From Laetmonice hystrix (Eukaryota), in NCBI GenBank assembly GCA_965235115.1, contig OZ249443.1, forward strand, positions 2,418,001-2,482,000: a stretch of DNA of 64,000 nt, written 5' to 3'. Under the pieces are notes generated by a model, which was not told the DNA's origin, made no database searches, and saw only the letters and a list, made by a program, of their open reading frames with translations. The translations under genes were made by a program, and so were the position numbers. Positions within the stretch are counted from its first letter, which is position 1, and every line of letters begins with the position of its first letter. Shown here one piece after another: positions 1,467-64,000 of the stretch.

Positions 1467-2017
1467 CCCATTACAAAATTAAAGGCCAGACTGTGATAAA
1501 ATAGTTTATTGTGGAGGTAAAATGACACATTGCGCGCAGAACTGCGCCAGGCGTATGTACACTTAAAAATGGAACATGTAAAAAACTGTTAAGAGCCTAA
1601 GTAAAAGGTAGGAGGCCGTAAAAACTTGTTAAGAACCTAAGTAAAAGGTAGGAGTCCATAATATTCAGATAAATAGATTAAGGGTTGTGGTGGGTGGGTA
1701 AAAAGAAACCCGTGTGGGCTGTCCGATGCCTTCGGTGCAAGTGTTGAAACAGTGGACGGTGTCCGTATGCTGCCGCTCCGGCGACACGTGACCTTGTCAC
1801 GTGATAGTGTGTGGTTTTGGCCGTTTGTAATGTCCCGCGATTACATATCATCATGCAATTGCAGGCCCCATTACAAAATTAAAGGCCAGACTGTGATAAA
1901 ATAGTTTATTGTGGAGGTAAAATGACACATTGCGCGCAGAACTGCGCCAGGCGTATGTACACTTAAAAATGGAACATGTAAAAAACTGTTAAGAGCCTAA
2001 GTAAAAGGTAGGAGGCC
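1467..2017 (-). repeat. 3' split-direct-repeat block B1-A2-spacer-B2 of the Ngaro element
   Basis: The 151-bp B repeat at 1467-1617 equals 1867-2017 (offset 400, no mismatch seen). The 168-bp A2 at 1701-1868 equals A1. B carries minus-strand AATAAA (plus tttatt near 1505 and 1905). The spacer has an imperfect extra copy of the B end (1619-1657). Confidence 0.95.
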
Positions 2018-2029
2018 AAACCGTAGGTA

Positions 2030-3942
2030 TTATAAATTTTGAAAGGCTTTGTGGACGGACGTCTGCTGCATTACATGTGGGCGGATATAGTTCCTAACTG
2101 CCTCCGTCCTCCAGGTGCCATGGCTCATTACGTCCTGTATGTTGGCCCCGCCATGGAAGGCATAGGACGCACCCCCACGGCGTAGGCTGTGGAGGGAGAT
2201 GTGCGCGGGATCTTGTCCCACCCTCGTCAACAGGTCTGCCCATAGGAGATTTCATGTTTACAAACATGGGGGTGATTCGCGCATGCGCATGACTGGCGCC
2301 ATGACTCTGGCTGGCAGAAAGTACACACCAGCAGCTGTGTTTACTACCACTGACCACAGAGTCCGTCGGAAACTATGCTGCAATCATGGATAATAACTGG
2401 TCCGTGTACGTTCTAAACCTAGATAGGCTACAGACACTAAAGAGCGATGTAAAGCCAAACTTCAGTATGATGGCAGTTTGATTTTTAACTGACCCGTATT
2501 TCGACAAAGAAGGGTGGACTCGGGCCAGTCGGGCCCAGTCAGCCCGCGAGCCGTCACAGCTTCTTGACCGCCCGGCCCCCAGTGTTAGTTGACCCGGTTG
2601 CACTCTACCGACGAGCCGTACTGAGAGCGCTGGTTGGCATGCTCTCTTTCACTTTCAGTTTATACGTATGTAGTTTCTCATGTTTTTTTAAAAAATGAAT
2701 CCCTAACATTTTGTTGCATGGGACTGGGGAAACTTTTTTGACGAATAGACAGATGGAGGTAAAATACCCCCCCCCCCGTCATCTAAATTTGGGTAAAAAA
2801 GGGGAAGGTAACCACCAGAACACAAGCACGCGTGTCGGTGTACCCAGGTCCCGGCGTTCACGCAGCCACCCCCGGCACCGTGCATGCTTACACCCGTGGC
2901 CTGGGGCCCGTTGCATAAAAAAATCCCCGCCCGCTCCGTAAACCACCCAGACCTGATCTGTCCAGCCTTCCTTGACCTCGCTAATAGTGCTTAGTATGTA
3001 TACTGTGCAGGATACAACCATATTTGGTTGTTCTTCGAAAAACGTGCATAAACAGACAAAATACGGAGAAGAATCTGTATTGTTTACAGTGCATCACTGG
3101 CTCCATTGTTGACTTTCTGCCAGCCAGAGCGCTGTAGGTGGTTACGTAACCACCCCCGCTATCGGAAGTGACGTAGTGCCTGAAACCTCCTATTGGCGAG
3201 CGATGAAGGGGACGGTCATGGTATTCCCGTCCTGATACTGCAGCAGGGGCTGGTCCATGGCCCGGGTCGGCGATACCTGTAACAGGTCATTGTAGGCTTT
3301 GAGCGGGCAGAGGGGCGAGCCAGGAATCGCCACCAGATATACCGTGGTCGGAGTAGCTGATGTTTGCATCGTCTTCGACCACTTTAATGAGAGCAACAGG
3401 CCATGTGATTGGACCTCAATATCACCACGTGTCAGGTGGCGGGTAGCATCAAAGGCAGCTACAGACTTTGGGGCTATGTTGCTCTGCCGGACAAAGCCAC
3501 AGAACATAACAAGTAGGGCGAAACGGATTCTCCGGGGATATTGCAGGCAACGAATATGTTCCAAGCACCGCTTGAGTAGGTCCGGGGATACCGGGCGCTT
3601 GGCCCGCGGGGTGTGCCTAATGGTCAGTTCCAGGCCTCTAACCGCAGTCGCCACTTGCGCTGAGTTAAGCGCCGACGCAGGGAGGCCCGCCAATCGGAAG
3701 TAGGTCCTAAGGTGGGCCATGTGGTTCCTTATAGTGCCCGGCGTCAGTGAGTGCCGCGCCAGATATTCCAGGTACCAACATATATGGTAAGGCTGCGGGG
3801 CATCATATGCGATGTCAATCCTGACGCAGAACGCGACGTATAATCGGATCGCGCTCCGTCGATTAGCTGTCGTCCCTGGTCTGTGGGCCTGCCGCTGTCT
3901 GGACGTGGCTGCCCGGGCCAGGGTTGCAGTAAACGCATCTGT
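2030..3942 (-). pseudogene. Tyrosine recombinase of the Ngaro element, interrupted by a 948-bp TIR element
   Basis: N-part GFVRQSN (catalytic R) and KWSKT (K). C-part HSLRRGG (HxxR), HGTW and RNY (catalytic Y). Removing 2244-3191 plus one AT restores ...FIARQ-WADLLTRVGQD..., a continuous 321-codon frame. Confidence 0.92.
2244..3191. mobile_element. 948-bp non-autonomous TIR element with AT target-site duplication (ISL2EU/PHIS-like)
   Basis: TIR AGGAGATTTCA / TGAAACCTCCT (11 bp, 1 mismatch). AT on both sides (2242-2243, 3192-3193). Perfect 18-bp subterminal inverted repeat CTCTGGCTGGCAGAAAGT (2305-2322 / 3112-3129). No transposase ORF. Superfamily is inferred from the AT TSD. Confidence 0.85.
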
Positions 3943-5910
3943 TCAGAGAAAGGCAGAAAATGAGAACAGAGCATCGTCAACAGCGACATGTTTTAAGTTC
4001 ATTTGTATTACAAAGTTGTCAGCTAATGTTCTGGATTCATCTGATATGGTGACTCGGCTCAGGGCGTCAGCCACTACCATTTCTTTTCCCGGGATATGGC
4101 AGAACTCATACGACACTTGCTGTCGAGCAGAGTTGTACCAGACCGCCCGGGCGCAGGCCGCCAGGATGGGGTCCCGGGCACGCCCGAAGCGGAAGGCCTC
4201 GACGCTGGACTGGTTGTCACACATTATCTGAATGACGCCCCCCGCGTCCGACTTGCTTGTAAAGACCCTGGCGGCGGCCAGGCAGTTTATAGCTTCCAAG
4301 TGAGTTATATGGTGAGCCGCCCTCATTGCGTCGGGGAAGCGATATGCATAGTAGCGTGTGCCATCAGTGGCGCCACCACCTTGGAGGCTGGCATCCCCCC
4401 AGATGCGCCGGACAACAGTGCCTGTGGGGATAATCGCCTTGCCGTTGTAGGTTGGGAGGAAGCGGGCAAACCACGCGAGGTCTGCCTTCATTCCTGTATT
4501 AACCACGATTGTGTCGCCCTCTGCCGCTCTGAGTGCGGCCAGTAGTCTTCCAATAAAAAGTCGAGCAGGCTGGACGACTTTTGCCAGCTGGTTGACCAGG
4601 CCGACTATTCTCTGTAACTGTTTAACGGTAACAGTTTTCTTTAGTGATGATTGGGCCAAACAGTACTGTATTTGTTGTAGTTTAGGTTCTGGAATCGTCA
4701 GTAGATTTGTTTCTGGTATCTATATTAATACCCAACCATTTAACCGCGGTGAACGGAGGCTGAAACTTGTTGACCGCGATCTTCAGTCCGAGTTAAGGCA
4801 GCAGTTCGATTGCTTGTTCGTAGTGTTGATTCGCCTCCCGATGTGGTGACAGGAGGATTAAATCGTCCAGGTACATATGTCCCGTAATGCCTTTCTGAGC
4901 CAAGGCTCTAATAATAAATTCGGCCACCTTCTGCATGACATAGGACGACATCCTAGCCCCGAACGGTACAGCTTTATCAAAGTAATATGCCCCTTCGTGT
5001 TCCAGTACGAGAAGAGGCCAGTCCAGGGGACATACTGAAAAATGTCTGTATGCGCGGCTAAGGTCAATTACTGCCATTTTGACCCTGTGGCGACCCATTT
5101 TGTTTATTGTGTCAACAGCTGTCGGGACTGAGGGCAGGCTGTGCTGTACCTGTTGTCCGTTGAACATGTGCTTGTTTATGTTTTCATTAATCCCACCTTC
5201 TGGGTAGGAGAGATCTACGATGACCCTGCGCTGAGATGGGTCACTTTTTTCACGGGTCATCATTGGGCTGACTTTACACCAGGGCACAAATGGTGGAGTG
5301 CGATATGGTCCGCTTATGGCCCCATGTTGGAGTTCAATATTAATGTATTCGGTCACGTGGTCTGTATGGTGGGTAGCTGAGGGATGGTTATATGTCGTTT
5401 GTGCGTTGTACATTGGGCCACCATCATACTGCAGGGGGAATCCAAATTTAATTCCCTCGATTACCATTTGGTCATCATCGTGGCCTGTGGCGAGTTCTTC
5501 CCATTTATCTATGTTGAGAGCTGACGGGATCTTAAGTCTTGCTCCTTTGTAGTTCGGGACGCCGGTTGCCCTAACGGTGTCATATATGTGAGCGGTACAG
5601 TGGTCAACAAACATGGATGGGAATGGCCAATTTGCGTAGTTATTACCGTTATCACAGGGATTATTATGGTAGTCACTATCAGTGGGGCCAGGTAGCTCAT
5701 TTGCAACTAGGTCAAGTATGCTATCGAGGTAATGGGGGTCTTCTCTTCGAGGGTAGGGGTGGATGTGTGGGTATCCAATGTTTATTAAAAACCCGGGTAA
5801 CACTAAGCTTACACCGTCTGCATCTGTGGCTGGGTCCGAGTCATGTGACCTGCTTGGTGTCACATGGCCCTCTGGCGGCTGATCGTGTGGCAATATGTCT
5901 CGTGGTTGTC

Positions 5911-6526
5911 TAGCTGTCGACTCTAGGCGACTGGCGGGTTGTAGAACCCGCTTAGTGGTGTGACCGAGCCTGGGCTCAGTGTGACCGACGACGTTGAGGG
6001 CAGTGTCTGTGGTGGACACCAGCTGCTGTCTGGAGTGCGCGTCTCTAGCTGTCGACTCTGGGCGACTGGCGGGTTGTAGAACCCGCTTAGTGGTGTGACC
6101 GAGCCTGGGCTCAGTGTGACCGACGACGTTGAGGGCAGTGTCTGTGGTGGACACCGGCTGCTGTCTGGAGTGCGCGTCTCTAGCTGTCGACTCTGGGCGA
6201 CTGGCGGGTTGTAGAACCCGCTTAGTGGTGTGACCGAGCCTGGGCTCAGTGTGACCGACGACGTTGAGGGCAGTGTCTGTGGTGGACACCGGCTGCTGTA
6301 TGGAGTGTAGTTCTCTGGCTGTCGACTCTGGGCGACTGGCGGGTTGTGGAACCCGCTTAATGGTGTGACCGAGCCTGGGCTCAGTGTGACCGATGACGTT
6401 GCGGGCAGTGTCTGTGGTGGACACCGGCTGCTGTATGGACTGTAGATCTCGGACTGTCGACTCTGGGCGACTGGCGGGTTGTAGAGCCCGCTTAGTGGTG
6501 TGACCGAGCCTGGGCTCGGTGTAACC
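5911..6526 (-). repeat. 135-bp tandem repeat (~4.6 copies) encoding 45-aa repeats at the Pol N-terminus
   Basis: ctgtcgactct recurs at 5914, 6049, 6184, 6319 and 6454. Peptide GHTEPRLGHTTKRVLQPASRPESTARDAHSRQQPVSTTDTALNVV. Confidence 0.95.
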
Positions 6527-6553
6527 GGTGGCATTATTATTATGTTTCTTACG

Positions 6554-6598
6554 GCGCGCCTGCGAAGAGTGTTCGGCAGGCACGCAGCTTAGTTTTTT
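6554..6598 (-). promoter_or_regulatory. Candidate -1 programmed ribosomal frameshift signal (gag to pol)
   Basis: A_AAA_AAC heptamer (6598-6592) directly before the gag TAA. A 6-nt spacer, then hairpin GCGTGCCTGC...GCAGGCGCGC (6585-6554). The -1 frame is the RT frame. Confidence 0.72.
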
Positions 6599-7815
6599 GG
6601 TCTGCCGTTTTCATTCCCCCACTGTCCCTTGCGTTCCCGGTCAGTCCACTGAGAGTTTCGGGCGTGGGCGTGTTCAGGCTGCCTGGCCATGAGCCGCTTT
6701 TTACGATTACAGTGTTTTGCAGAGTGGTTGCACTCTTGTCCCACTCCATAGAAACATACGGCACAGTAGTGTGTCATGTGGAGGGCGCCCTCCACATGCC
6801 CGTGTGGTTCCTGACAGCCGTCGTCATTAAATGCAGGGCAGGGGGTGTCCTTTACATCATCTCGGCGGCCTTGCAGCCAAGAAAGTCTCATGCGCTCAGA
6901 AGCGAAAAGGCTACGGTCATGCCAGGTTGCTTGACCGTCGCGGACATAGTCCATGCACGTGTGTGACCAACCTCTGACTGCCCGCCACGCTAGGGTGGCC
7001 GCGTCCTCAGCTACCTGTGACAGGTGAGTGACCATAGCACCGGCCTCACTGTGGGGGTCTAACTGTGACTCTAACATTCGTGTGTAGCCGCACACGTACT
7101 CTGCTAACGTTATGTCTGTGCCAGCTTTCCTAGACTTAACCCTTTTCTTCATATCAGGGGGTAGATATTTATGTGGGCGTGTAAGTTGGCTGAATGGGAG
7201 GCTATTCCTACCTGTGGGTGCTCCCACTGTCGGGTACTGACGTGCCAGGGCTTGGTCCCCCAGTCGGCGGGCGTGAGGGTTGTCCATGATGTCCCGTGGG
7301 TCCAGGTCATATTCACTTTCGTCGTCGTCGGTATTGACCGAGGAGTCCGTTGTCCGGCGTCGCCTTATTCTGCCTGAATTGGTTTGGGCCGGTGTACGGC
7401 ATTGGGCAGGCTGTGACTGGCTGGTAGATGGTGCTTGGCTAGTGGTGGGCCTGTCCTGCGTTGGGGCCGGTGTGCGGCATTGGGCAGGCTGTGACCGGCT
7501 GGTGGGTGGTGCTTGGCTAGTGGTTGGCCTGTCCTGCGTCTGGTTTGGCCGGACCTCAGGTAGGCGGGCGTTGACCGTGTCGCACAGGCTCGTTAGCATG
7601 CGCTCCAGCGCCTGAACGCGGGTTTCTACCTGGGAGAGTTGGCTTGCCTTTGGCGCCTTCTTTTTTCCCGGCGTCGTAGTCGTTGCAGACGGCGAATATT
7701 GAGGAATGTTTTCTGCTCGTGCGTCTAATTCCAGGCCGTCGCCACTTTCTTCGGGCCGGTCGGTTTCGGTCTGCGCCGTTGCCATAGTTTGCTGGCGAGT
7801 TGCCCTGCCCGTCAT
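6589..7815 (-). CDS. Gag-like ORF1 of the Ngaro element (408 aa from the first ATG at 7815)
   Basis: Open frame 7932-6589. Low-complexity S/T/Q/P N-terminus. C-terminal Cys/His knuckle region CPAFNDDGC...H...HYCAVC...HSAKHC, typical of DIRS-order Gag. Confidence 0.85.
   Translation of the reverse strand: MTGRATRQQTMATAQTETDRPEESGDGLELDARAENIPQYSPSATTTTPGKKKAPKASQLSQVETRVQALERMLTSLCDTVNARLPEVRPNQTQDRPTTSQAPPTSRSQPAQCRTPAPTQDRPTTSQAPSTSQSQPAQCRTPAQTNSGRIRRRRTTDSSVNTDDDESEYDLDPRDIMDNPHARRLGDQALARQYPTVGAPTGRNSLPFSQLTRPHKYLPPDMKKRVKSRKAGTDITLAEYVCGYTRMLESQLDPHSEAGAMVTHLSQVAEDAATLAWRAVRGWSHTCMDYVRDGQATWHDRSLFASERMRLSWLQGRRDDVKDTPCPAFNDDGCQEPHGHVEGALHMTHYCAVCFYGVGQECNHSAKHCNRKKRLMARQPEHAHARNSQWTDRERKGQWGNENGRPKN
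7386..7539 (-). repeat. 78-bp (26-aa) in-frame duplication within gag
   Basis: QDRPTTSQAP(P/S)TS(R/Q)SQPAQCRTPA occurs twice; DNA offset 78. Confidence 0.9.
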
Positions 7816-7845: not shown

Positions 7846-8013
7846 AAAAGAAACCCGTGTGGGCTGTCCGATGCCTTCGGTGCAAGTGTTGAAACAGTGG
7901 ACGGTGTCCGTATGCTGCCGCTCCGGCGACACGTGACCTTGTCACGTGATAGTGTGTGGTTTTGGCCGTTTGTAATGTCCCGCGATTACATATCATCATG
8001 CAATTGCAGGCCC
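7846..8013 (-). repeat. 5' split direct repeat A1 of the Ngaro element
   Basis: Identical to 1701-1868 (offset 6145), from aaaagaaacccgtg to gcaattgcaggccc. Confidence 0.95.
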
Positions 8014-8566
8014 AAATACCCGTTTTCCTGGCATCTGGGAACAAAATCAAAGGCATACGGGCATTAGGCACTCTATTTATTTTTTTTATATTTTTTGAGT
8101 TGGGGGGGGGTTCGTACGAACCATTCGAACCCCCCTGGATCCGCCCCTGGGGGGGGGGGGGGGGTCCAACACATGATCAAGTAAGGAAAACGTAGACTGA
8201 GTTGGTTTTTTTTTGCGTGATATGCCGTTTATTACAGTAGACATGCAGTTCTATCATGGAATACAGATTCCTCATAATACTGTGACGACTGCTACTCTGG
8301 TCTAGATGTGTGGGGAACCATACACAAGTATAATGCATCTCTATATCTAAAATATACGTCCTCTTCTCTAAAATAGATGGCCCGAGGCGCCCTCTATCGG
8401 TGTACAATGACATTAACTCATGACGCATGCGTACGGGTCTGTAAAGGCTATGCATCAATCAACAGGTTATGTTTGTGCTTACATTCTATGATACAGATAT
8501 GTGTACTGATATTCCTCCCTATACACATGGATCACAATCGACACATTCTCATCACCTTCTATCGGT

Positions 8567-26299: not shown

Positions 26300-28154
26300 A
26301 ACTTTAGGTTACACTTGGTAATTTTTATTTAACTGTTACATGTACTGGTCTACACAATAGCCATGAGTTGTAATTTTTTTATTGGCTTGCTATTTATATT
26401 GTAGATAATGAATGGTGTGATTTTTGCCAGTTGATTGAAAAGAAAAATACTCAAATCATCTCAGCAATTCTTTTGATACAAGTACTACCAAAATATTCAG
26501 GAAAGACTAAATTATGCAAAAGAATATTTGAAATATAGAAGAAATACTAAGGACTTAATCCAAGACTCTTGCACGTTTAGAAGATGAAAAATTGTAGATT
26601 ACAGAACTAGTTGAAAGCGAGAAACCTAGCTGTAGGAGGAATTTCAGTACACAATGATTGTTTTCTCGACAGTCAGCTGTGGACATGTTCACGACTATCT
26701 TATGATGGAACAGATGGGGGACACTCAACAGAACCTTATAGACACACAACTTACTGAGGGTTTCTAAAAGCTTTCACTACCAGTCCAAATATAAGGCATT
26801 TTTTCATTCTTTTATTTATACTGGGAAAATTTCCGCTACATATATGGGATACCGGTTTTCAAAAATGCCAAGTTCAAAAAGCTACAATTGATCAACTTTA
26901 CAAATTGTAATTTTAAAAAATGACGCTAACAGGAATGCACGAGACCATTGTAATGGTGGAATGGGACGGTGATGGATTGTACAACAGAGATTTAAAATGG
27001 CCAGTCCGACATTTGGGTTTAGAGTTATTCCTTGGAAGTATGTCTTCCCTTATTTTTTATCAATTGCATTTTCACAGTTTGTATTTTCGAGGCATATTGT
27101 ACAGTGCTCTCAGCATAGTTTTTTGGTATGCTTTTGATTCCTGTGTGATATGAAATCACAGATTGAAGGTCAGTGACGTTTAAAGAAGAATCCATGATTA
27201 AAATATTTAAGAGCAGATTTGTTTAGTGAATTGTGTGAGTGATCTAAGGACTCTAGTGACTGTTTGACTGTCTGTAAACAGTTTGTTATATGTAAGAAAG
27301 AATTACATGCCAGATATACATACCAATATATCTAGATACGTAGCAGTGATTTAAAAAATCTAAAGATGTTGTAATAATAATATTGGAGGAGTTGTGGTGG
27401 GAAAATAAGTATTGATTGTGCTACATTTGATTGTGAGACATTGTAGACATTTAAGTGATCTAGTCATGATCTAGTCAAGGAACCGGTGCTGGATAAGTGA
27501 AGGATAATTTATTTAAGGTGGGTCATTTATCCTTGGTAATAATGATGTGAGAAGATGTTGAGATTGATTAAAATGAAATTGCAGATTATGTAAGGAATAT
27601 TCAATGTGATTGTTGGCTAGACGGAATATGGATTTGTAAATACTACCTGGTATATATCTGTAGGCTTCACCATTTATTTCATAATATTGAAATGTGATAT
27701 CATCTCTATTAGATAAAACTCAGGATGATTACAAGTCACACATAGATCCAGAATCTAAGGTTTCAGTTGTTTATAGAAGCCCCCGGTGAGTTGTGGGTAG
27801 ATGTCATGTTTTGCTCACCCCGCGTTCCCCAGTTTCAAGTTAAGTCTGACCACCAGATGGCAGGTCAGCCCACCTGTTCAAACACCGTCTGGCTGACCGA
27901 GCCTTCACTGCCAGGATTACCACAATCACGTGCAGCGTTCGTTGTCCTAACACACTGTCCACCAGTTAGTGTTTCTATTATTAAAGTCAGTCGTACACAT
28001 ACCAATCTGACTCGACTCAACTTCATCCAACTGTTTTATGACTTGAAAACTTCTACTTTAAGCCAGTTAAATTAAGTCTAGCTGAGGCTGAGTTTTCAAG
28101 GCATGTAGACAGACCTGTTGAGGTTAGTCAGTTCAATAGGTGTGTGCCCTGTTA

Positions 28155-29290
28155 GTTTCAGTCTGGGAGAGGGTGAATGTTGTAATGTTCAGGAGGTGGT
28201 ATTGAGGCTGGACAACTGTACTCTAGGGGCCACAGTTTCAGTCTGGCAGAGGGTGAATGTTGTAATGTGTTCAGGAGGTGGTATTGAGGCTGAAGAGCTG
28301 TACTCTAGGGGCCACAGTTTCAGTCTGGCAGAGTGAATGTTGTAATGTGTTCAGGAGGTGGTATTGAGGCTGAAGAACTGTACTCTAGGGGCCACAGTTT
28401 CAGTCTGGCAGAGGGTGAATGTTGTAATGTGTTCAGGGAGTGGTATTGAGACTGAAGAACTGTACTCTAGGGGCCACAGTTTCAGTCTGGCAGAGTGAAT
28501 GTTGTAATGTGTTCAGGAGGTGGTATTGAGGCTGAAGAACTGTACTCTAGGGGCCACAGTTTCAGTCTGGCAGAGGGTGAATGTTGTAATGTGTTCAGGA
28601 GGTGGTATTGAGGCTGAAGAACTGTACTCTAGGGGCCACAGTTTCAGTCTGGCAGAGGGTGAATGTTGTAATGTGTTCAGGAGGTGGTATTGAGGCTGAA
28701 GAACTGTACTCTAGGGGCCACAGTTTCAGTCTGGCAGAGTGAATGTTGTAATGTTCAGGAGGTGGTATTGAGGCTGGACAACTGTACTCTAGGGGCCACA
28801 GTTTCAGTCTGGCAGAGGGTGAATGTTGTAATGTGTTCAGGAGGTGGTATTGAGGCTGAAGAACTGTACTCTAGGGGCCACAGTTTCAGTCTGGGAGAGG
28901 GTGAATGTTGTAATGTGTTCAGGAGGTGGTATTGAGGCTGAAGAACTGTACTCTAGGGGCCACAGTTTCAGTCTGGCAGAGGGTGAATGTTGTAATGTGT
29001 TCAGGAGGTGGTATTGAGGCTGAAGAACTGTACTCTAGGGGCCACAGTTTCAGTCTGGCAGAGGGTGAATGTTGTAATGTGTTCAGGAGGTGGTATTGAG
29101 GCTGAAGAACTGTACTCTAGGGGCCACAGTTTCAGTCTGGCAGAGGGTGAATGTTGTAATGTGTTCAGGAGGTGGTATTGAGGCTGAAGAACTGTACTCT
29201 AGGGGCCACAGTTTCAGTCTGGCAGAGGGTGAATGTTGTAATGTGTTCAGGATGTGGTATTGAGGCTGGACAACTGTAGGGGCCACAGTC
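28155..29290. repeat. 82-bp minisatellite, ~14 copies
   Basis: ttcagtctggcagagggtgaatgttgtaatgtgttcaggaggtggtattgaggctgaagaactgtactctaggggccacagt, period 82 with small-deletion variants. Confidence 0.95.
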
Positions 29291-30044
29291 CCTTGAAGAG
29301 ATGATTGATTGTAAAACATGAAGAAACGCCCCCTTCTCTAAGTAAATCTAGTTATTGTGGGTGTGTGGAGTGTGCACATACCTATTATTGACGTAACCAC
29401 GGTAACCGTCTCCCACAGGGATACGATGACTAATGATGTGTTGTGACCCCAATCTGACCTTGGTCTATATTCATATCTACTTCCCACCACGCAGGGTGTC
29501 GATGGTGCAACTATTGCAATGGTTGTATTCATGTTAGCTTATAAAATTATTTATATGATGTTTGCTTCATTGGTTGAAGGAAAGGGTAGGACTTTTGACA
29601 CAGTTTTTAAGGCATAGATTATTATACATGTACGGTACGTGTAGTTAGTTTCTGTATAAGGGTGTATGTGTAAATACCATGTATCTTGTATAGAACGCGA
29701 GGTGATCTCCGTCTGTGTACTCTTCAGATTTGCGTGGTCATCCTGTGAAAAACTGGTCAGTATATGGCTGTTATTTTGGTCGAAATCTACCAATAATCAT
29801 TTTCCAATTTATTTGACAGCACCAGTCAGTATCTTCTACCCGGTATATTAAAATATAGCACGATTTACCGTTAAAAATCAGTCTGATAAAAGGAAGTACG
29901 TGTATTCTTAGTACATTAGAAATGCACTGCAGTGCGTTTCTTCAATGAAAGTTAATATTTTCCTACAAAAATGAAGTTTTTCGGTCTACAGGATTTCCTA
30001 ACTGTATCCACTTTCTATCTCCAGAAACTAATTGCTATTTTCGT

Positions 30045-39600: not shown

Positions 39601-42600
39601 GGATGAAGGGGGGAGACAACACCTACATGAGGAGCTCGACCACGAGCTGGACGAGAAACGAGCTGCTATTCTCTCAGGTGAGTCTCAGATAGACATTATG
39701 AATCATTTATTTAATGTGAGGTTTTGTTTAAATTCTGGAGCACAATTAATGTTTTGATTGAGGTTTATGTTGATCTGTTGTTTTTAAGGTCCACAAATCT
39801 TTCATCATATTCTCATGTAATAAGTTTACCCTTTCGATTCAGCCCAGGACAAGTTAAAGAGGCTTCATGACGAGTTGCAGCAAACTGAGGGTCAGATTGG
39901 TCGAGCGTCAGAAGAATTAGAACGGATTGTCAAATCGCAGCCACCACAGGCAATTTCAGAGGAAGCCAAGGAAGTAGTGAGGGCACGGCTGGAGAGAAAA
40001 ATAGACCAGGTACAATCAGTGGCAGGTTCACGAGAAGAGAGGAAAATATATCTAACTACATGGAAGGTTGCACTGCTAGCCAATATAGAGTCGAAATAGA
40101 GAGGAGAGTAAATTATATTTGATGTTTTTTCAGGTTCATTTACTGCGGGACGAAGCAGACAAGATAGAGGAAGAAATGGAAAGGACAGAGACGGAGATAC
40201 AGCAACAGGAGCAGGAGATTGGGAACCTACGGGGGAGACTTCATGGAATGGGGTCACGGGACTCGCTCTACGTAAGTAGATATCACCGCCATGATAATGG
40301 GGTCACGGGACTCGCTCTACGTAAGTAGATATCACCGCCATGATAATGGGGTCACGGGACTTGCTCTACGTAAGCTATACGAGCTGTCTTGCCAAGCTCT
40401 AGGTATAAATTACTGTTGTTTTCACAGAGTGTCGTCAGTAAGGAAGTCGCCGACAGGGAACAACAGCTAAGTCTGACCAACCAGACTTACACTACCATGC
40501 AGCAGAAGTTGGAGGAAATGTTGACAACCATTGCCCGTGAAACTGACAATCTGAAAACACTGGAGCACGAACTTAGACAAGGTAGAGTGGAGAAAATGGC
40601 TTTTTTTAAACTTTTAAACTTTTTTTAAACCTTTATAAAAGGTTTCCCTGGTAGTTTTAAGTGTTAAGACCCCAGACTGTATAACAAGGTGAGGTGTGTG
40701 TATGTAGGTCAAGTTGAGCAGAACGATGAGATCCGTGAAGAGTTGGAAGCGATTATTGGTGGACTCCAGGATTATCTCGGGGACGTCCAGCGGAGAGCTG
40801 ACCACCAGAAACTGGACATGGACCGCCTGGTCAGGGAGCGGGAGGAGCTCCGGCAAAGATTAAACCATGCCATGGAGGAAGCAAACCGCCTCCCGCAGGC
40901 TGAGGAGGAACTTGCCAGGTTACAGGAGGTAAATATATATATACATACCTGCACATTATACATACAGAACACCACATTGATTAATCATCAGGGTACACAA
41001 AAGTCCTCACTTCTATTTGTGAGTAAATGTGAGTCGTATGGCTATAGTTACACCTTACTTAGGAAGGCGGGTCAGGACTTGGGTAATCGTCGCCCCCTGT
41101 TATTATTGTACAACACCTGGCAGGACTCTGGTAACCGTCGCCCCCTGTTATTGTTGTACAGGACTCTGGTAACCGTCGCCCCCTGTTATTGTTGTACAGG
41201 ACTCGGGTAACCGTCGCCCCCTGTTATTGTTGTACAACACCTGGCAGGACTCAGGTAACCGTCACCCCCTGTTATTGTTGTACCCGGCAGGACTCGGGTA
41301 ACCGTCGCCCCCTGTTATTGTTGTACCTGGCAGGACTCGGGTAACCGTCGCCCCCTGTTATTGTTGTACCTGGCAGGACTCGGTTAACCGTCGCCCCCTG
41401 TTATCGTTGTACCTGGCAGGACTCGGGTAACCGTCGCCCCCTGTTATTGTTGTACAGGACTCGGGTAACCTTCGCCCCCTGTTATTGTTGTACAGCACCT
41501 GGCAGGACTCGGGTAACCGTCGCCCCCTGTTATTGTTGTACCTGGCCGGACTCGGGTAACCGTCGCCCCCTGTTATTGTTGTACCTGGCAGGACTCGGGT
41601 AACCGTCGCCCCCTGTTATTGTTGTACAACACCTGGCAGGACTCGGGTAACCGTCGCTCCCTCTTATTGTTGTACCTGGCCGGACTCGGGTAACCGTCGC
41701 CCCCTGTTATTGTTGTACCTGGCCGGACTCGGGTAACCGTCGCCCCCTGTTATTGTTGTACCTGGCAGGACTCGGGTAACCGTCGCCCCCTGTTATTGTT
41801 GTACCTGGCAGGACTCGGGTAACCATCGCCCCCTGTTATTGTTGTACAGTACCTGGCAGGACTCGGGTAACCGTCGCTCCCTGTATATTGTTGTACCTGG
41901 CAGGACTCGGGTAACCGTCGCCCCCTGTTATTGTTGTACCTGGCAGGACTCGGGTAACCGTCGCTCCCTGTATATTGTTGTACCTGGCAGGACTCGGGTA
42001 ACCGTCGCCCCCTGTTATTGTTGTACCTGGCAGGACTCGGGTAACCGTCGCCCCCTGTTATTGTTGTACAACACCTGGCAGGACTCTAGTAACCGTCGCC
42101 CCCTGTTATTGTTGTACAGCACCTGGCAGGACTTGGGTAGCCGTCGCCCCCTGTTATTGTTGTACAATACCGGGCAGGACTCGGGTAACCGTCGCCCCCT
42201 GTTATTGTTGTACAACACCTGGCAGGACTCGGGTAACCGTTGCACCCTGTTATTGTTGTACCTGGCAGGACTCGGGTAACCGTCGCCCCCTGTTATTGTT
42301 GTACCTGGCAGGACTCGGGTAACCATCGCCCCCTGTTATTGTTGTACAGTACCTGGCAGGACTCGGGTAACCGTCGCTCCCTGTATATTGTTGTACCTGG
42401 CAGGACTCGGGTAACCGTCGCCCCCTGTTATTGTTGTACCTGGCAGGACTCGGGTAACCATCGCCCCCTGTTATTGTTGTACCTCGCAGGACTTGGGTAA
42501 CCGTCGCCCCCTGTTATTGTTGTACAACACCTGGCAGGACTCTAGTAACCGTCGCCCCCTGTTATTGTTGTACAGCACCTGGCAGGACTTGGGTAGCCGT

Positions 42601-45600
42601 CGCCCCCTGTTATTGTTGTACAGTACCGGGCAGGACTCGGGTAACCGTCGCCCCCTGTTATTGTTGTACAACACCTGGCAGGACTCGGGTAACCGTTGCA
42701 CCCTGTTATTGTTGCACCTGGCAGGACTCGGGTAACCGTCGCACCCTGTTATTGTTGCACCTGGCAGGACTTGGGTAGCCGTCGCCCCCTGTTATTGTTG
42801 TACAACACCTGGCAGGACTCGGGTAACCGTCGCACCCTGTTATTGTTGCACCTGGCAGGACTTGGGTAGCCGTCGCCCCCTGTTATTGTTGTACAACACC
42901 TGGCAGGACTCGGGTAACCGTCGCACCCTGTTATTGTTGCACCTGGCAGGACTCGGGTAACCGTCGCACCCTGTTATTGTTGCACCTGGCAGGACTTGGG
43001 TAACCGTCGCCCCCTGTTATTGTTGTACAACACCTGGCAGGACTCGGGTAACCGTCGCACCCTGTTATTGTTGCACCTGGCAGGACTCGGGTAACCGTCG
43101 CACCCTGTTATTGTTGCACCTGGCAGGACTTGGGTAACCGTCACCCCCTGTTATTGTTGTACAACACCTGGCAGGACTCGGGTAACCGTCGCTCCCTGTT
43201 ATTGTTGTACAGCACCTGGCAGGACTCGGGTAACCGTCGCCCCCTGTTATTGTTGTACAGTACCTGGCAGGACTCGGGTAACCGTCGCCCCCTGTTATTG
43301 TTGTACAGTACCTGGCAGGAGTCGGGTAACCGTCGCCCCCTGTTATTGTTGTACCTGGCAGGACTCGGGTAACCGTCGCCCCCTGTTATTATTGTACAGT
43401 ACCTGGCAGGACTCGGGTAACTGTCGCCCCCTGTTATTATTGTACAGCACCTGGCTGAGCTGGAGGATTCGTTGGCTGGTCAGCGTGATGCGAACACTTC
43501 ACTGACCAGACAGCTGGAGGAGACGATGCATCAGGAGGAGGAGGACACAGCTGATCTCTCGAACCAGCTGCACGATGCTCAGGGCCAGCTGGAGCGGCTT
43601 CAACGGGAACTCCGAGACCGTGAGAAACAGGCTCAGGTATGACATGAGTAGGGGAGATAGTGGCTGAGATAGGGTATGAGCCGGGTGAGCTGGGGAACTC
43701 AGGGACCATGAGAAACAGGCTCAGGTAGGACATGAGTACCTGTAGGGGAGACAGTGGCTGAGATAGGGTACGAGCCGGGTGAGCTGGGGAACTCAGGGAC
43801 CACGAGAAACAGGACATGAGTACCTGTAGGGGAGATAGTGGCTGAGATAGGGTACGAGCCGGGTGAGCTGGGGAACTCAGGGACCATGAGAAACAGGCTC
43901 AGGTAGGACATGAGTACCTGATGGGGAGATTGTGGCTGAGATAGGGTATGAGCCGGGTGAGCTGGGGAACTCAGGGACCATGAGAAACAGGCTCAGGTAG
44001 GACATGAGTACCTGTAGGGGAGATTGTGGCTGAGATAGGGTATGAGCCGGGTGAGCTGGGGAACTCAGGGACCACGAGAAACAGGCTCAGGTAGGACATG
44101 AGTATCTGTAGGGGAGATAGGGGCTGAGATAGGGTATGAGCCGGGTGAGCTGGGGAACTCAGGGACCGTGAGAAACAGGCTCAGGTAGGACATGAGTAGG
44201 GGAGATAGTGGCTGAGATAGGGTATGAGCCGGGTGAGCTGGGGAACTCAGGGACCACGAGAAACAGGCTCAGGTAGGACATGAGTAGGGGAGATAGTGGC
44301 TGAGATAGGGTATGAGCCGGGTGAGCTGGGGAACTCAAGGACCACGAGAAACAGGCAGGACATGTCAGAACATGGCATTGTGGCATGTAAAACTGTTTTA
44401 CCCTGTCAGGACCTGGATGCAATTCAGTGTTACGAAGTGTAAGGATTTCGAGATGGTCGATATTTTAATATAACCTCAAAGTCAAAAACAGCTACTTCAG
44501 GGTCAGTTGCAGGATGTAGCATGAACAGTGACTTTGAACATGATCATATAGTTACTGTGGTATCAGAGAATTAACACGTTCCTGGCTGCAGGCTGATCGG
44601 GAGACATATGAAAAACGTCTTCAAGCTGAACAGAGGAAGCAGAGGACGCTAGCTGAGCAGGCGAGAGACACTAAGAATAGAGAGGATGAACTCCGTATAC
44701 TGCATGAACAACTAGCCAAACTTCAGGTCAGACTGTGCAGGTTTTCTACCCGTACTCCATCTGAAAATACAGTGTATATATGTCGAGTGGAGCTGTTTAC
44801 CATGTATAATATACAGTATAGTATAAATAATGATTTTATGACAGGGTACAGTGTATACACATGTCGAGTGGAGCTGTTTACCGTGAAGTATAAATAATGA
44901 TTTTATGACAGGGTACAGTGTATACACATGTCGAGTGGAGCTGTTTACCGTGAAGTATAAATAATGATTTTATGACAGGGTACAGTGTATACACATGTCG
45001 AGTGGAGCTGTTTACCGTGAAGTATAAATAATGATTTTATGACAGGGTACAGTGTATACACATGTCGAGTGGAGCTGTTTACCGTGAAGTATAAATAATG
45101 ATTTTATGACAGGGTACAGTGTATACACATGTCGAGTGTAGCTGTTTACCGTGAAGTATAAATAATGATTTTATGACAGGGTACAGTGTATACACATGTC
45201 GAGTGGAGCTGTTTACCGTGAAGTATAAATAATGATTTTATGACAGGGTACAGTGTATACACATGTCGTGTGGAGCTGTTTACCATGTATAATATACAGT
45301 ATAGTATAAATACATGATTTTGTGACAGGGTACAGTGTATACACATGTCGAGTGGAGCTGTTTACCGTGAAGTATAAATAATGATTTTGTGACAGGGAAG
45401 CAATGTAGATCTACAGAATCAGTTGTACGGACACCAACAAAGACTCAAGGACCAGAAACGGCAGAACGTCACTCCGGATGATCTCAGACGACGTCTGGAT
45501 GATATCTTTAGGTCTCTCAAGGCTGGCAGGGTGCGTACAAACGTTTTATGTTTCATTTTATAGTCATTTTTCTGAGGAATTAATCAGGGTTACTTAAGAT

Positions 45601-54600: not shown

Positions 54601-57600
54601 GGACAAAGATCCAATGAAAGGTAGATCATTCTAACACCCTGATGGCAGTGAGGGAAGGCACACTCTTCACATCGTGGCAGTTCCCTGACATTCTAGTAAA
54701 AGTTTTGTAAATGGGGACCTTTAGTTTACACATGTAGATTGAGTTTGGTTTCCCAGTAAAATCTCTGGCTCTCTTCAAGGTCACTCCTGGAAGATGACCT
54801 TTACAATGACGTCGATGAGCTTGACCCTGACCTTGACTACGACCCGACCTCCAAGGAAGGTCGCAAGCCGTACCTGATGGACGAGATAGATTGTCTGGAG
54901 GACACCCTGGCCAGGAGAAGGGCTGAGCTACGGGAATCAAACAGTCTCCTCCGGGAGGCTCAGGCACATTTTGACACCGTCAAAACTGAGGTATGTAGGG
55001 GATCTGACAGGAAATATAATGACAGCAGGGCGTTTTAAAAAAAGTCTTTTGTATTGGTCTTTATTTCAACTTTCCCTCTTAGTCACCATTGCCCCCATGT
55101 TTGCCACTTTCCCATGCCAGCCCCTCCCTCCCCCCCCCCCCCCCCCCCCGCCTTTACCAAATCTTCATCTATATCTGGAGGACAGTTTGATTCTGTTCAT
55201 TCCGAACCATCTTACCATCATTATCAGTGTTTCCATAGTTGTCAGATTTAGATTTTGGTGCGGTTCCCTCCTCAGATATTGTTATTTGGGGTCATGGTGG
55301 CAGTCCACGTGATCTGAGAGTTTATTTGTTAATAGGCCAGGATGACCATCCAGGAGTACACAGAGGCCAAGACGAGCTACGCCCAAACATTGCAGGATGC
55401 GGAGGAGATAGAGAAACGAGCTCATGACACTGGCGTGGAGCTCGTCAAGGCCCAGGAGGAGCTTGACTATCTGAAGGCTGAGCTGAGTGAGCTACGGAAA
55501 GAGAAATCATCCAATGAGGACATGATGAAAGAAATCCGCAAGGTTATCTCGGCCAAGGACGCCGAGTTCCAAGGTTTTGACGGTAAACTCAAGGAGACAC
55601 TGACAAGGTTAGTCAGTCATCACAGAACTCAATCGGTACAAATAGCATCTGCAAAAAGAGCAAGTTGGCTGCTGATGTCAGCTGGAGTAATTAATATCAT
55701 CTTTGTTTATTCGTTCATGTTTAAGAAATAGTGAGTTAAAAATGATCTAAGATGGTCTTGTTGGTTTATAGGCTGGCCAGTGTGCAGACCGAGTTAGCTC
55801 AGGCAGAGGAACAGCAGCGCGAGCGTGTCCAGCGAATCACAGAGTGCGAGCAAGTCATTGCTCTTCGTCACAAGGAAATCGATGCCGTAAACGAAAAGGT
55901 CATTTTCTGGGTCATGTTCTTGTAATTATACCAAGTCGGAGGTCAATAATTCAGAGTAGAAATAATAATATTTATAGATAATGTTTTAGTGAGAATGTGT
56001 GAGCAATGATTCATTGTTACGGAATATACAAAGTAGAAAAATTAAGGTTGACAATGACATGAGTATCTTGTATTGTTTTTTCCCCCTGAACAACACAAAT
56101 GCAGTAAGATTTGAACAGACACGATCCTTGCAGAAACTTATAGATTGATAACCTGATTTATCCCAATCAAAGATCGCTGACCAGAGGCGAGAGTTGGAGA
56201 GAGTCGACCGTGAGACTGGAGTGAAGGAAGCAGAGTGGGACGTCTTCCGTAAAGCGCTGGAGAGTAGACAAAATCAGCTGCAGGATCTCGGTCATCAAGT
56301 GGAACAAGATATGGTTGTCAAACGACGAAACATGCAGGTGAGAGATGTTCGGGTAACATTTACGTTAAAATCACAGGATATCCTGAGTAAACGATGAATT
56401 ATTTATACCTTCAAAAATCTCAGACCAGTCTGTAATACGATAGCTCACTCTGACCGTGGACTTTTTTACTCCCAGACCATTGAGGATGGCCTGGAGGAAC
56501 TCCGACAGGAGCGTCTCCATATCGAGGGAGACATCCGTGACAAAAAGGTTCAATTGAACGAGGTAAGTGAACTCTGCAACCATGCACTGAACTTTACCTC
56601 TATCTCTGCATGCACCAGAATATGGGTGAAACTGATCAAGAGTTTAAGTGGGAAAAGTCTGCTGCTTGAAGATTCACCTCAAAGAAAAAGATCATGTATA
56701 GGTTGTGAGGTAGTATGGATTTAAAAGATAGTGGACTGAACCATTCCAAGTCCATTAGACAAACAAATCAAACCGAGTTGATTGAGGACGAGTTAACGGT
56801 GTGAGTGATAATAGGTGACTGTGAAGGTCGATCACGAGGAAGCAGTACTGCAGAGTCTAGCCGCTACTACAACCAAACAACGCAGTGAACTGGCCGAGGT
56901 CAGGGAGCAAACAGAGCTACAACTGGCTGACCTTGACAAGGTCATGGGTCATAGGTCACAACTTCAGGCTCAGCTGGACGCAGGGACCGAGGTAACCTCT
57001 GTAGGCACTAGTCACGGCAGCATGTCACTCACAGCTAGGTCCCCCAGTCTCAGGGTCAGCTGGACGTGGGGACCCAGGTAACCTCTGTAGACACTAGTCA
57101 CGGCAGCATGTCACTCACAGCTAGGTCCCCCAGTCTCAGGGTCAGCTGGACGCAGGGACCGAGGTAACCTCTGTAGGCACTAGTCACGGCAGCATGTCAC
57201 TCACAGCTAGGTCCCCCAGTCTCAGGGTCAGCTGGACGTGGGGACCGAGGTAACCTCTGTAGACACTAGTCACGGCAGCATGTCACTCACAGCTAGGTCC
57301 CCCAGTCTCAGGGTCAGCTGGGCGTGGGGACCGAGGTAACCTCTGTAGACACTAGTCACGGCAGCATGTCACTCACAGCTAGGTCCTCCAGTCTCAGGGT
57401 CAGCTGGACGTGGGGACCGAGGTAACCTCTGTAGACACTAGTCACGGCAGCATGTCACTCACAGCTAGGTCCCCCAGTCTCAGGGTCAGCTGGACGCAGG
57501 GACCGAGGTAACCTCTGTAGGCACTAGTCACGGCAGCATGTCACTCACAGCTAGGTCCCCCAGTCTCAGGGTCAGCTGGACGTGGGGACCGAGGTAACCT

Positions 57601-60600
57601 CTGTAGACACTAGTCACGGCAGCATGTCACTCACAGCTAGGTCCCCCAGTCTCAGGGTCAGCTGGACGCAGGGACCGAGGTAACCTCTGTAGGCACTAGT
57701 CACGGCAGCATGTCACTCACAGCTAGGTCCCCCAGTCTGGGTCAGCTGGACGTGGGGACCGAGGTAACCTCTGTAGACACTAGTCACGGCAGCATGTCAC
57801 TCACAGCTAGGTCCCCCAGTCTCAGGGTCAGCTGGACGTGGGGACCGAGGTAACCTCTGTAGACACTAGTCACGGCAGCATGTCACTCACAGCTAGGTCC
57901 CCCAGTCTCAGGGTCAGCTGGACGCAGGTACTGAGGTAACCTCTGTAGGCACTAGTCACGGCAGCATGTCACTCACAGCTAGGTCCCCCAGTCTCAGGGT
58001 CAGCTGGACGTGGGGACCGAGGTAACCTCTGTAGACACTAGTCACGGCAGCATGTCACTCACAGCTAGGTCCCCCAGTCTCAGGGTCAGCTGGACGTGGG
58101 GACCGAGGTAACCTCTGTAGGCACTAGTCACGGCAGCATGTCATTCACAGCTAGGTCCCCCAGTCAGGGTCAGCTGGACATGGGGACCGAGGTAACCTCT
58201 GTAGACACTAGTCACGGCAGCATGTCACTCACAGCTAGGTCCCCCAGTCTCAGGGTCAGCTGGACGTGGGGACCGAGGTAACCTCTGTAGGCACTAGTCA
58301 CGGCAGCATGTCACTCACAGCTAGGTCCCCCAGTCTCAGGGTCAGCTGGACGCAGGGACTGAGGTAACCTCTGTAGACACTAGTCACGGCAGCATGTCAC
58401 TCACAGCTAGGTCCCCCAGTCTGAGGGTCAGCTGGACGTGGGGACTGAGGTAACCTCTGTAGGCACTAGTCACGGCAGCATGTCACTCACAGCTAGGTCC
58501 CCCAGTCTCAGGGTCAGCTGGACGTGGGGACCGAGGTAACCTCTGTAGACACTAGTCACGGCAGCATGTCGCTCACACCTATGTTACAGCTAGCTTGACA
58601 TGGCCATAATAGCTAAAAAAAATATACAACTTGGATGGTACAAGGCTTCAAATCTTTATAACATTATAGTAATAATATTATTACAAGAAAAAAAATTCAA
58701 GAAAAAAGGTGGGGTTTTTTATGCGCTTGAAATACAAATGTTGTCATGCCTGTTTATGTAGTCTTTTTCAGCACTGCATGTGACCTGGGCCCGGTTTTAG
58801 AGAGGTTAGCATGATCTTAACTTAAGCTCTGCTTAGCCTTTTAGGACCCCTGATTGGCTGGTCCTCTGCTGCTCAGCTTCAACCAGCCAATCAGGGGTCA
58901 TAAAAGGCTAAGCAGAGCTTAAGTTAAGATCATGCTAACCTCTCTGAAACCGGGCCCTGGTATTCAGGTTCTTTTATACGAAAATTAACTTGCAATCAGT
59001 AGCTGAACTGAAGGTGTTTACACTTGTGTTGTATTATTTACCCACAGACAGTGGCCGAACTGAAGGTGTTTACACTTGTGTTGTATTATTTACACACAGA
59101 CGGTGGCCGAACTGAAGGTGTTTACACTTGTGTTGTATTATTTACACACAGACAGTAGCCGAACTGAAGCAGCTGAAGACAGAGATTGGTCAGAGAAAAG
59201 TTGACCTTGAGACTCTCAAGGACAAGTGTGACGGTCAGCGGGAGGAACTGGAGAGCCTCCTGACTCAGCGTCACGCCCTGGAGGGGGGCGTACTGGGACT
59301 CCGCAAGGAGAAGGTCTCACTGGAGGAGACTCAACGGATGGCAGAGAAACGGCTCAAACAACTTCAAAGGTAGGGCGGATATACTCGGAAAACATAAAGA
59401 AACTGGCCAGAATGAGAGACTGTCAACTACGTCTTTTAGAGAAGCCACTCATAATTCCAATATTTTATGTGAACTTTAAATCAGAATAAAAGAACTTCAC
59501 CTTTTCTTCTCATCAGGATTGTTGAAGATGTTGAAGTCTGAATTGCTTCATTATTACCAAAAGTTTTGTCTCAATGTTTTGTTTGTGATAATCCAGGAAC
59601 CAGCTCCAAGCTGAAGACTCGATCAAAGCGTCACAAAGCCAGGCCATCCAGATGGAGCGGGACCTCCGTAACATTGAGGCAGACATTGACGATGCTCGCC
59701 GTGAGAAAGCTTCTGTCAAACAGCAAGTGGCCAACATAAAAACCTTCCTTCAAGGTACACCCTCCATTTATTGTAACATTTTAATGAAGTTCTAATCTGA
59801 CTTGTATAAAGAGCAGTGTGAATGATGAGTCTATGTTTTTTTCGGACAGATGGCCAGCACGAGATGGAAAGAGTAAAGGCTCAACTCAAGGACACAGAGA
59901 AACAAGTCGAGATGTTGACCCAGGTCAGTGCTGCCACCACCGGCAGGGGCAGGAACTACGGACCGTTCATGGGACAGGGGTACCACCCGCTCAGTGGCAC
60001 CCCCTACTGGGGAAACTGGGAACTAAAGTGGTGGTCATACCTGTAAGCTAGTGGGCATGACATAGGGTTATTAATTTATGGTAACTTCTCCACGAAAGTT
60101 TTGGGTAAGAGTTAGGGTTAAGGATAGGGATAGGGATATGTTGGGGAGGTCTAGGGACCGGGGTTAGGGTTGAGGTCAGGGATGGGGATAGGGATAGATC
60201 TTTACTTACGACCAAATTTCGTGGAGTTGAAGTTGCTATGAATTATATACCGACATCAGAAAGGTACAACAAAGGCAGAGTTGTGTAAGGTGGTGCAGCA
60301 CACGTTGATAATGGTGATATTGATCAGTACACGTGTACTTAACATGTACTCAGCCAGGTCAGGCTCAGAGGAAGGTATGAGGGCATAGTGTACATTGAAA
60401 GTTCGGGAACAAATGTCAAGGTTAGTGAACACAAAAACTGAGTGGGTGAAGTGTTGAAAGCCTCACACACCTATAGAGGCACACCCTGGCCCACATAGAG
60501 GTCTATTCAGTCCACCCATTGTTTGACCTCACACACCTATAGAGGCACACCCTGGCCGACATAGAGGTCTATTTAGTCCGCCCATTGTTTGACCTCACAC

Positions 60601-63912: not shown

Positions 63913-64000
63913 GTACGTAAAGATCCCCGGATTACCAGACGAGTTGGTAAACAATCCTGAAATGTAGCAGAAATCTAGCGGAAACCTTTCTCGTTTATTA

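Follow-up and report, generated by a model that had tools for sequence, protein, structure and literature searches.

Organization of the element

The window, a 64,000-nt stretch of the Laetmonice hystrix genome, carries an element that spans positions 8013-1469 with all its parts on one strand, in the order A1, gag, pol, YR (tyrosine recombinase), B1, A2 and B2. Its features are as follows.

7846..8013, minus strand: split direct repeat A1, located at the element's 5' end; its 168 nt match A2 with 100% identity
6589..7815, minus strand: gag ORF, bounded by its first ATG and the TAA; a Cys/His zinc-finger-like motif lies in the C-terminal part, and the ending is P-K-N-stop
7206..7214, minus strand: predicted phase-1 splice donor in gag, cut 7212/7211, its alignment position and phase shared by 18 of 19 Gags
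6598-6592, minus strand: slippery heptamer A_AAA_AAC in the gag register (sequence reading and enrichment in overlaps)
6591-6586, minus strand: 6-nt spacer containing the gag stop codon (sequence reading)
6585-6554, minus strand: predicted stimulatory stem-loop of 10 + 3 pairs with a 5-nt loop (folding)
4793..6610, minus strand: linker and RT of pol (RVT_1, E 3e-8), lying in the -1 frame and ended early by an in-frame stop at 4795-4793
5909..6527, minus strand: tandem array in the pol linker, 4.6 copies of a 135-nt unit, a multiple of three, stop-free in the pol frame
3943..4719, minus strand: RNase H segment of pol, which the window copy has in a different frame (frame change near 4706-4720)
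3939..3960, minus strand: predicted phase-1 splice acceptor at the YR start (pyrimidine tract and CAG), cut 3939/3938, the phase being 1 in all 13 families that have a YR
2030..3942, minus strand: YR ORF, split by a ~945-bp insertion (Pfam and copy comparison)
1469..2017, minus strand: split direct repeats B1 (2017-1869), A2 (1868-1701) and B2 (1617-1469) (repeat comparison)

The gag product had no match in Pfam and is labelled Gag from its position. Pfam detected the RT and weak integrase SAM domains in the element, with stronger Phage_integrase matches in related families; H-x-x-R and Tyr motifs are present in the translated YR of a sister copy. RNase H gave no Pfam match in the window family and was assigned by position and by homology among copies. 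No methyltransferase domain was found, the Pfam scan of the pol proteins returning RVT_1 only and pol ending at the RNase H region. Inverted repeats of at least 60 nt, the DIRS1-like criterion, were absent from the six loci searched. In passages of PMC8547959, PMC4157794 and PMC3783388, Ngaro elements are defined by the layout A1-gag-RT/RH-YR-B1-A2-B2 and the lack of a methyltransferase. By this structural definition (split repeats, gag-RT/RH-YR order, no methyltransferase) the element is of the Ngaro type, sharing its layout and missing methyltransferase with the Ngaro superfamily of the order DIRS.

The window copy is broken by the stop at 4795-4793, the frame change near 4706-4720 and the insertion in YR, none of which the initial annotation had noted; sister copies have a pol of 933 aa. 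Damaged in both pol and YR, it could not make full enzymes. The ~945-bp insertion (about 2244-3188) is accompanied by a 5-bp target duplication and matched none of the other fetched loci.

The gag-pol junction of the window copy

The minus-strand gag 3' end reads CCA AAA AAC TAA, with the TAA stop at 6591-6589, and places A_AAA_AAC in the gag register. The RT-bearing frame, -1 relative to gag, opens at 6610 just past a TGA at 6613-6611 and overlaps gag by 22 nt. Its first in-frame ATG lies 332 codons downstream; an ATG 56 nt past the gag stop belongs to the gag and not to the pol frame. Beyond the 6-nt spacer, the predicted hairpin comprises 10 pairs (one of them G-U), a bulged C, 3 further pairs and a 5-nt loop. 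The initial annotation had described the gag ending with its in-register heptamer, the short -1 overlap, the lack of a nearby pol ATG, and the spacer followed by an extended 10-pair stem, and all of these were borne out by frame mapping and folding. The junction combines the canonical features of a -1 programmed ribosomal frameshift signal, namely an X_XXY_YYZ heptamer in the upstream register, a -1 ORF open at the heptamer and a predicted structure 5-9 nt downstream.

The 52 nt 3' of the heptamer fold at -22.9 kcal/mol (z -4.08), and none of 200 shuffles was equally stable. The junction helix has a free energy of -20.4 kcal/mol, with an empirical p of 0.007 against 150 sites within the same element. 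The two strands of the window together contain 515 canonical heptamers, of which that of the junction ranks third by downstream fold; the first two ranks go to overlapping readings of a single T-run, which lies near 8081 and outside the element. No pseudoknot was detected at the junction of the window family by a simple H-type search, which gave one plausible pseudoknot in the related locus L079.

Two other routes into pol were rejected for the window copy. Readthrough of the gag TAA would enter a frame-0 ORF of 221 aa that is derived from the array and ends before RT, and reinitiation at the ATG near 6533 would be in the wrong frame.

Conservation among copies and related families of the host genome

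The host genome (627 Mb) contains at least 7 copies of the window family, 98-100% identical over a 381-nt query. When these genomic copies were aligned, as had been suggested when the junction was first described, heptamer and stem proved to be retained in all 7 found. One of the seven carries three substitutions, one of which makes a pair G-U.

Sixty related loci were fetched, guided by Gag and RT searches: 8 without a Gag or RT match, 15 with a broken RT core and 37 with Gag and a whole RT core. These 37 loci form 14 families with RT-RH identities of 29-61%; the RT-RH tree has 31 rows, all host-genome elements, with 6 short rows omitted, and further searches mostly recovered the same families. 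Pol overlaps gag in the -1 frame in 32 of the 37 loci, the linker is interrupted in 4 and gag and pol are fused in 1; no overlap in frame 0 or +1 was seen among them. In-frame Gag-Pol fusions (L118, L165, P0132) were discarded as support, being single copies that differ from their shifted sisters by an indel where a comparison could be made.

The in-register sites of the 14 families are A_AAA_AAC (6 families), A_AAU_UUU (1), G_GAU_UUU (1), G_GGG_AAC (1) and G_GGG_UUU (5). A_AAA_AAC is in register in all five families of the window's clade; one decayed family has it as well. It is found at 6 of 329 overlap codons, compared with 1 among the remaining 16,211 codons of gag and pol. For canonical heptamers taken together, 9 lie in overlap codons and 23 in other codons. 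Fisher's test for the overlap enrichment gave p 4e-10, a value that is indicative only, the families being related. Given the encoded residues, the chance of exactly the A_AAA_AAC codons is ~0.085 per family. The distance from heptamer to gag stop ranges from 0 to 12 codons. Heptamer, register, overlap and conservation are real and lie far beyond chance.

Counted against the frameshift reading, 6 of the 14 families have the same -1 overlap with no canonical heptamer (five with G_GGG_UUU, one with G_GGG_AAC). The initial annotation had named related intact copies lacking the heptamer as evidence that would speak against it; its reading was not overturned on this point, all five families of the window's clade keeping A_AAA_AAC.

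From junction to RT the linkers measure 64-478 codons and are stop-free in the pol frame, an openness partly built in by the choice of intact copies. Long tandem arrays in these linkers have a unit divisible by three in 7 of 7 cases; one 14-nt two-copy repeat does not.

Downstream stems across families

In ten families, namely the decayed L109 and nine of the 14, the site is A-type, U-type or G_GGG_AAC; for these, a helix opening 5-9 nt downstream of the heptamer was compared with random sites of the same element. The junction helices were better, with a combined p of 1.4e-5, or 1.5e-4 when the window's own family was removed. Several observations count against a general stimulator. The stem is weak or absent in three A_AAA_AAC families, L076 (p 1.0), L109 (p 0.27) and L077 (p 0.17), and stems are non-homologous between families. 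Two-sided covariation was found at 0 of 20 pairs in 10 sister-family copies, and near-identical copies show only one-sided changes that keep a pair, together with one broken pair.

Relatives beyond the host genome

Scans of viral contigs and of genome contigs yielded no relative in DNA of other species. Five loci came from a metagenome scan, and a gag-pol junction is present in 2 of these. The first, L134, has an RT 35% identical and an in-register A_AAA_AAC at 5234-5240, followed by a stem of -20.7 kcal/mol (z -3.36); its -1 frame runs into RT across the 44-nt terminal overlap of the contig. This 5.6-kb contig (PJEL010015942.1) closes on itself. It contains the gag, pol and YR of an Ngaro-like element, and no additional repeats were detected in it; either a collapsed repeat or a circular form may account for it. 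The second, the decayed L138, has a run of 15 A's plus a C at the junction and no significant stem (z -0.4).

The A-run of L138 bears on a different origin of the pol frame, in which RNA polymerase, not the ribosome, slips on the A6 run and adds the extra base. The heptamer does contain six A's, one inserted A would likewise yield the pol frame, and in this relative the run has grown to 15. Polymerase slippage leaves unexplained why the codon register is fixed, why the final C never varies and why a stem follows at 5-9 nt; nor does it account for the A_AAU_UUU and G_GAU_UUU that other families have at the homologous place. We give it only the slightest chance.

Since an in-register A_AAA_AAC translates to x-K-N, the C-termini of public Gag proteins were read as a proxy for the heptamer. 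The sample comprised 156 homologues, including the best 150 of 2,767 matches, from which 9 lacking a whole zinc finger were dropped; the tree was built with FastTree on the cores, tails excluded. Forty-eight public proteins cluster with the window's clade (support 0.96). The motif [P/S/A]-K-N lies in the last 12 residues of 42 of these 48, compared with 10 of 1,452 other 13-residue windows. In three of the remaining 6 the motif is farther from the end, and one of the 6 reads in frame into RT. Median identity of the 48 to the host-genome Gags is 44%, with 2 of the 48 above 70%; the genomes from which they come may be few.

These data could also reflect a protein motif at the Gag end (K-N, or F or G-F in sister clades), with overlap and hairpin as by-products. 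The public evidence is at the protein level only, and P-K-N could serve a Gag function. What argues against a protein motif is the nucleotide sequence behind it: wherever the DNA is known (7 host-genome families and L134), the K-N codons are always A_AAA_AAC, and anything from 0 to 12 codons separates them from the stop. The residue preceding K-N in the 42 public Gags is, moreover, always P, S or A, each with a codon ending in A. A protein motif by itself would account for neither the register nor the spacing. A purely protein-level origin is highly improbable.

Predicted splicing of YR and expression of pol

The frame of YR relative to pol varies among families (0 in 4, -1 in 6, +1 in 3). Candidate splice sites were scored with an ad hoc scheme for acceptors and a matrix for donors. 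The acceptor at the YR start is the best of 312 AG sites in locus L069; homologous splice sites occur across L069-L117, and the acceptor is also present in L134 (1790-1815). From sequence, the conserved donor and acceptor predict a spliced Gag-N-YR message. The predicted intron removes the frameshift region, so that unspliced RNA would be left as the template for Pol. According to the passage quoted in PMC13003380, Poulter and Butler (2015) proposed programmed frameshifts for the Ngaro YR ORF. That proposal concerns YR, whose offset here takes all three values and whose splice signals are conserved instead.

The same scoring was applied upstream of RT. The initial annotation had pointed out that a conserved ATG or splice site there would contradict frameshifting, and neither was found across families: no shared ATG precedes RT, the first Met falling at codon 0-377, and no splice acceptor is conserved before it, the best AG sites differing in phase and position. 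Since this scoring detects the conserved YR signals, it is able to see splice signals, and it found them for YR, not for pol.

These results bear on the possibility that Pol is translated from a message of its own, reached either from the gag donor to a pre-RT acceptor or through an internal ATG, with the heptamer incidental. The element apparently uses splicing for YR, and most of RT would be retained if translation began internally at the in-frame Met of codon 332, which closely follows the first conserved RT motif. Against this stand the pre-RT AG sites, which mostly score below the YR acceptor, and the first Mets, which share no place. Splicing would, besides, need no open linker back to the overlap, no fixed -1 frame and no K-N in 42 of 48 Gags. 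We consider a separate Pol message unlikely.

Taken together, the data indicate that the gag-pol junction is likely to be a programmed -1 ribosomal frameshift signal, through which RT and RNase H would be made as a Gag-Pol fusion.

Candidate shift sites in other clades

At least nine families, five intact and at least four broken (L085, L086, L091, L095, L100, L103, L106, L107 and L111; decayed L139, L142, L143, L156 and L158), have an in-register G_GGG_UUU 2-4 codons ahead of the gag stop; the motif occurs at 0 of the 16,211 other codons counted in the 14 families. It does not fit X_XXY_YYZ. No stem was detected downstream of it (combined p 0.81 over nine families); G_GGG_UUU is usually itself the 5' arm of a stem, not upstream of one. 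Our guess is that it would act through a single-tRNA slip on G_GGG. As a shift site it did not appear in our literature search, as judged from the search listing, and, if truly used, it would represent an undescribed kind of eukaryotic -1 shift site. G-F is found near the C-terminus of 31 public Gags. One G_GGG_UUU family (L098-L101, L125, L126 and ~20 more Gag matches) has many intact 452-aa gag frames and few RT matches, which suggests a spread of pol-deleted derivatives.

H-F-stop or H-F-x-stop is the ending seen in a large sister clade of public Gags, comprising P0004-P0007 and about 45 more. F lies within the last 5 residues in 51 proteins and is preceded by H in 40. Such an ending is compatible with a U-rich shift site adjoining the stop.

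A third Ngaro-like clade (L159-L178) has pol in the +1 frame with an overlap of 179-512 nt in 12 of the 13 loci mapped among 20 fetched. Used as a negative control, it showed a canonical heptamer in 1 of 13 overlaps. Since pol is in +1 in this clade, the -1 frameshifting appears to be clade-specific. The two scanned loci that have a GDSL/SGNH hydrolase ORF (L159, L168) carry it upstream of gag; in Xenopus Ngaro, as described, this hydrolase is listed as an additional ORF.

A broader reading can be proposed tentatively, and we hold it to be possible rather than probable. Ngaro elements would follow a full retrovirus-like programme, yielding Gag, a Gag-Pol made by -1 frameshifting and a Gag-N-YR made by splicing. 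Their shift site would have diversified by clade: the window's clade would use A_AAA_AAC and a hairpin, a sister clade a non-canonical G_GGG_UUU inside its own hairpin, another clade a U-rich site immediately preceding the stop, and the third clade a +1 route.

Proposed expression of the element and comparison with known systems

On unspliced RNA, most ribosomes would end at the gag TAA. A minority, held up at the hairpin while AAA AAC is occupied by the Lys and Asn tRNAs, would move back by one base and then read the linker, RT and RNase H. For the recombinase, splicing would fuse the 5' half of gag to YR and take out the frameshift region. The overall plan would resemble that of retroviruses, with Gag, Gag-Pol by frameshift and a third product by splicing.

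PMC3835772 gives A_AAA_AAC as the site of MMTV, HTLV, BLV, EIAV and astroviruses, the spacer being typically of 6-9 nt, and describes the MMTV stimulator as a pseudoknot. The heptamer of the window element is identical to that of these viruses, and it likewise stands before a stable structure at such a spacing. The likeness to MMTV drawn in the initial annotation holds for the heptamer and not for the stimulator, which here is a predicted simple stem-loop. The window element also differs from the MMTV-type set in having neither a protease nor a DDE integrase, and its gag ends right at the heptamer. Parts of the frameshift review PMC5009743 place A_AAA_AAC among the shiftiest heptamers, report pol in -1 for 28 of 51 surveyed animal LTR elements, many with classical heptamers, and give G_GAU_UUU as a known umbravirus shift site. 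The -1 gag-pol arrangement is shared with these animal LTR retrotransposons; the survey covers LTR elements, and those parts of the review hold no mention of DIRS or Ngaro.

Literature searches returned no paper that shows or maps a gag-pol shift site in Ngaro or DIRS. Passages of PMC3783388, PMC6681497, PMC8547959, PMC3266345, PMC9210276, PMC7192593, PMC9341512, PMC4157794 and bioRxiv 2022.06.16.496473 contain none; the ORF-overlap tables of PMC9210276 may bear on the point. This agrees with the initial annotation, which was not aware of a Gag-Pol fusion of this kind having been shown for Ngaro/DIRS elements; the idea itself has a precedent, frameshifting having been proposed in review for Ngaro, at least for YR. 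Poulter and Butler (2015) and Goodwin and Poulter (2004) are said to have extended it to RT/RH. Priority for the general Ngaro frameshift idea may lie with these authors.

The reviewed proposal is shifted by the present results, in that frameshifting fits the gag-pol junction and splicing fits YR. The mechanism is textbook and likely real here; what is new is its mapping in a retroelement group where we found it undocumented. It bears on how YR retrotransposons express ORFs that have no ATG, a question unsettled in the literature searched. If the Gag-Pol frameshift holds, Ngaro RT would be packaged as Gag-Pol at a set ratio, in a retrovirus-like manner. The junction provides a 45-nt cassette that is directly usable in a reporter, and a Gag ending in [P/S/A]-K-N offers a simple protein signature of the cassette across a whole clade.

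Other repeats in the window

Long satellite arrays occupy positions 60338-64000, 56866-58709, 41063-43600 and 28086-29391, with units of 66, 86, 43/48 and 82 nt respectively. An 80-nt inverted repeat is located at 58783-58961.
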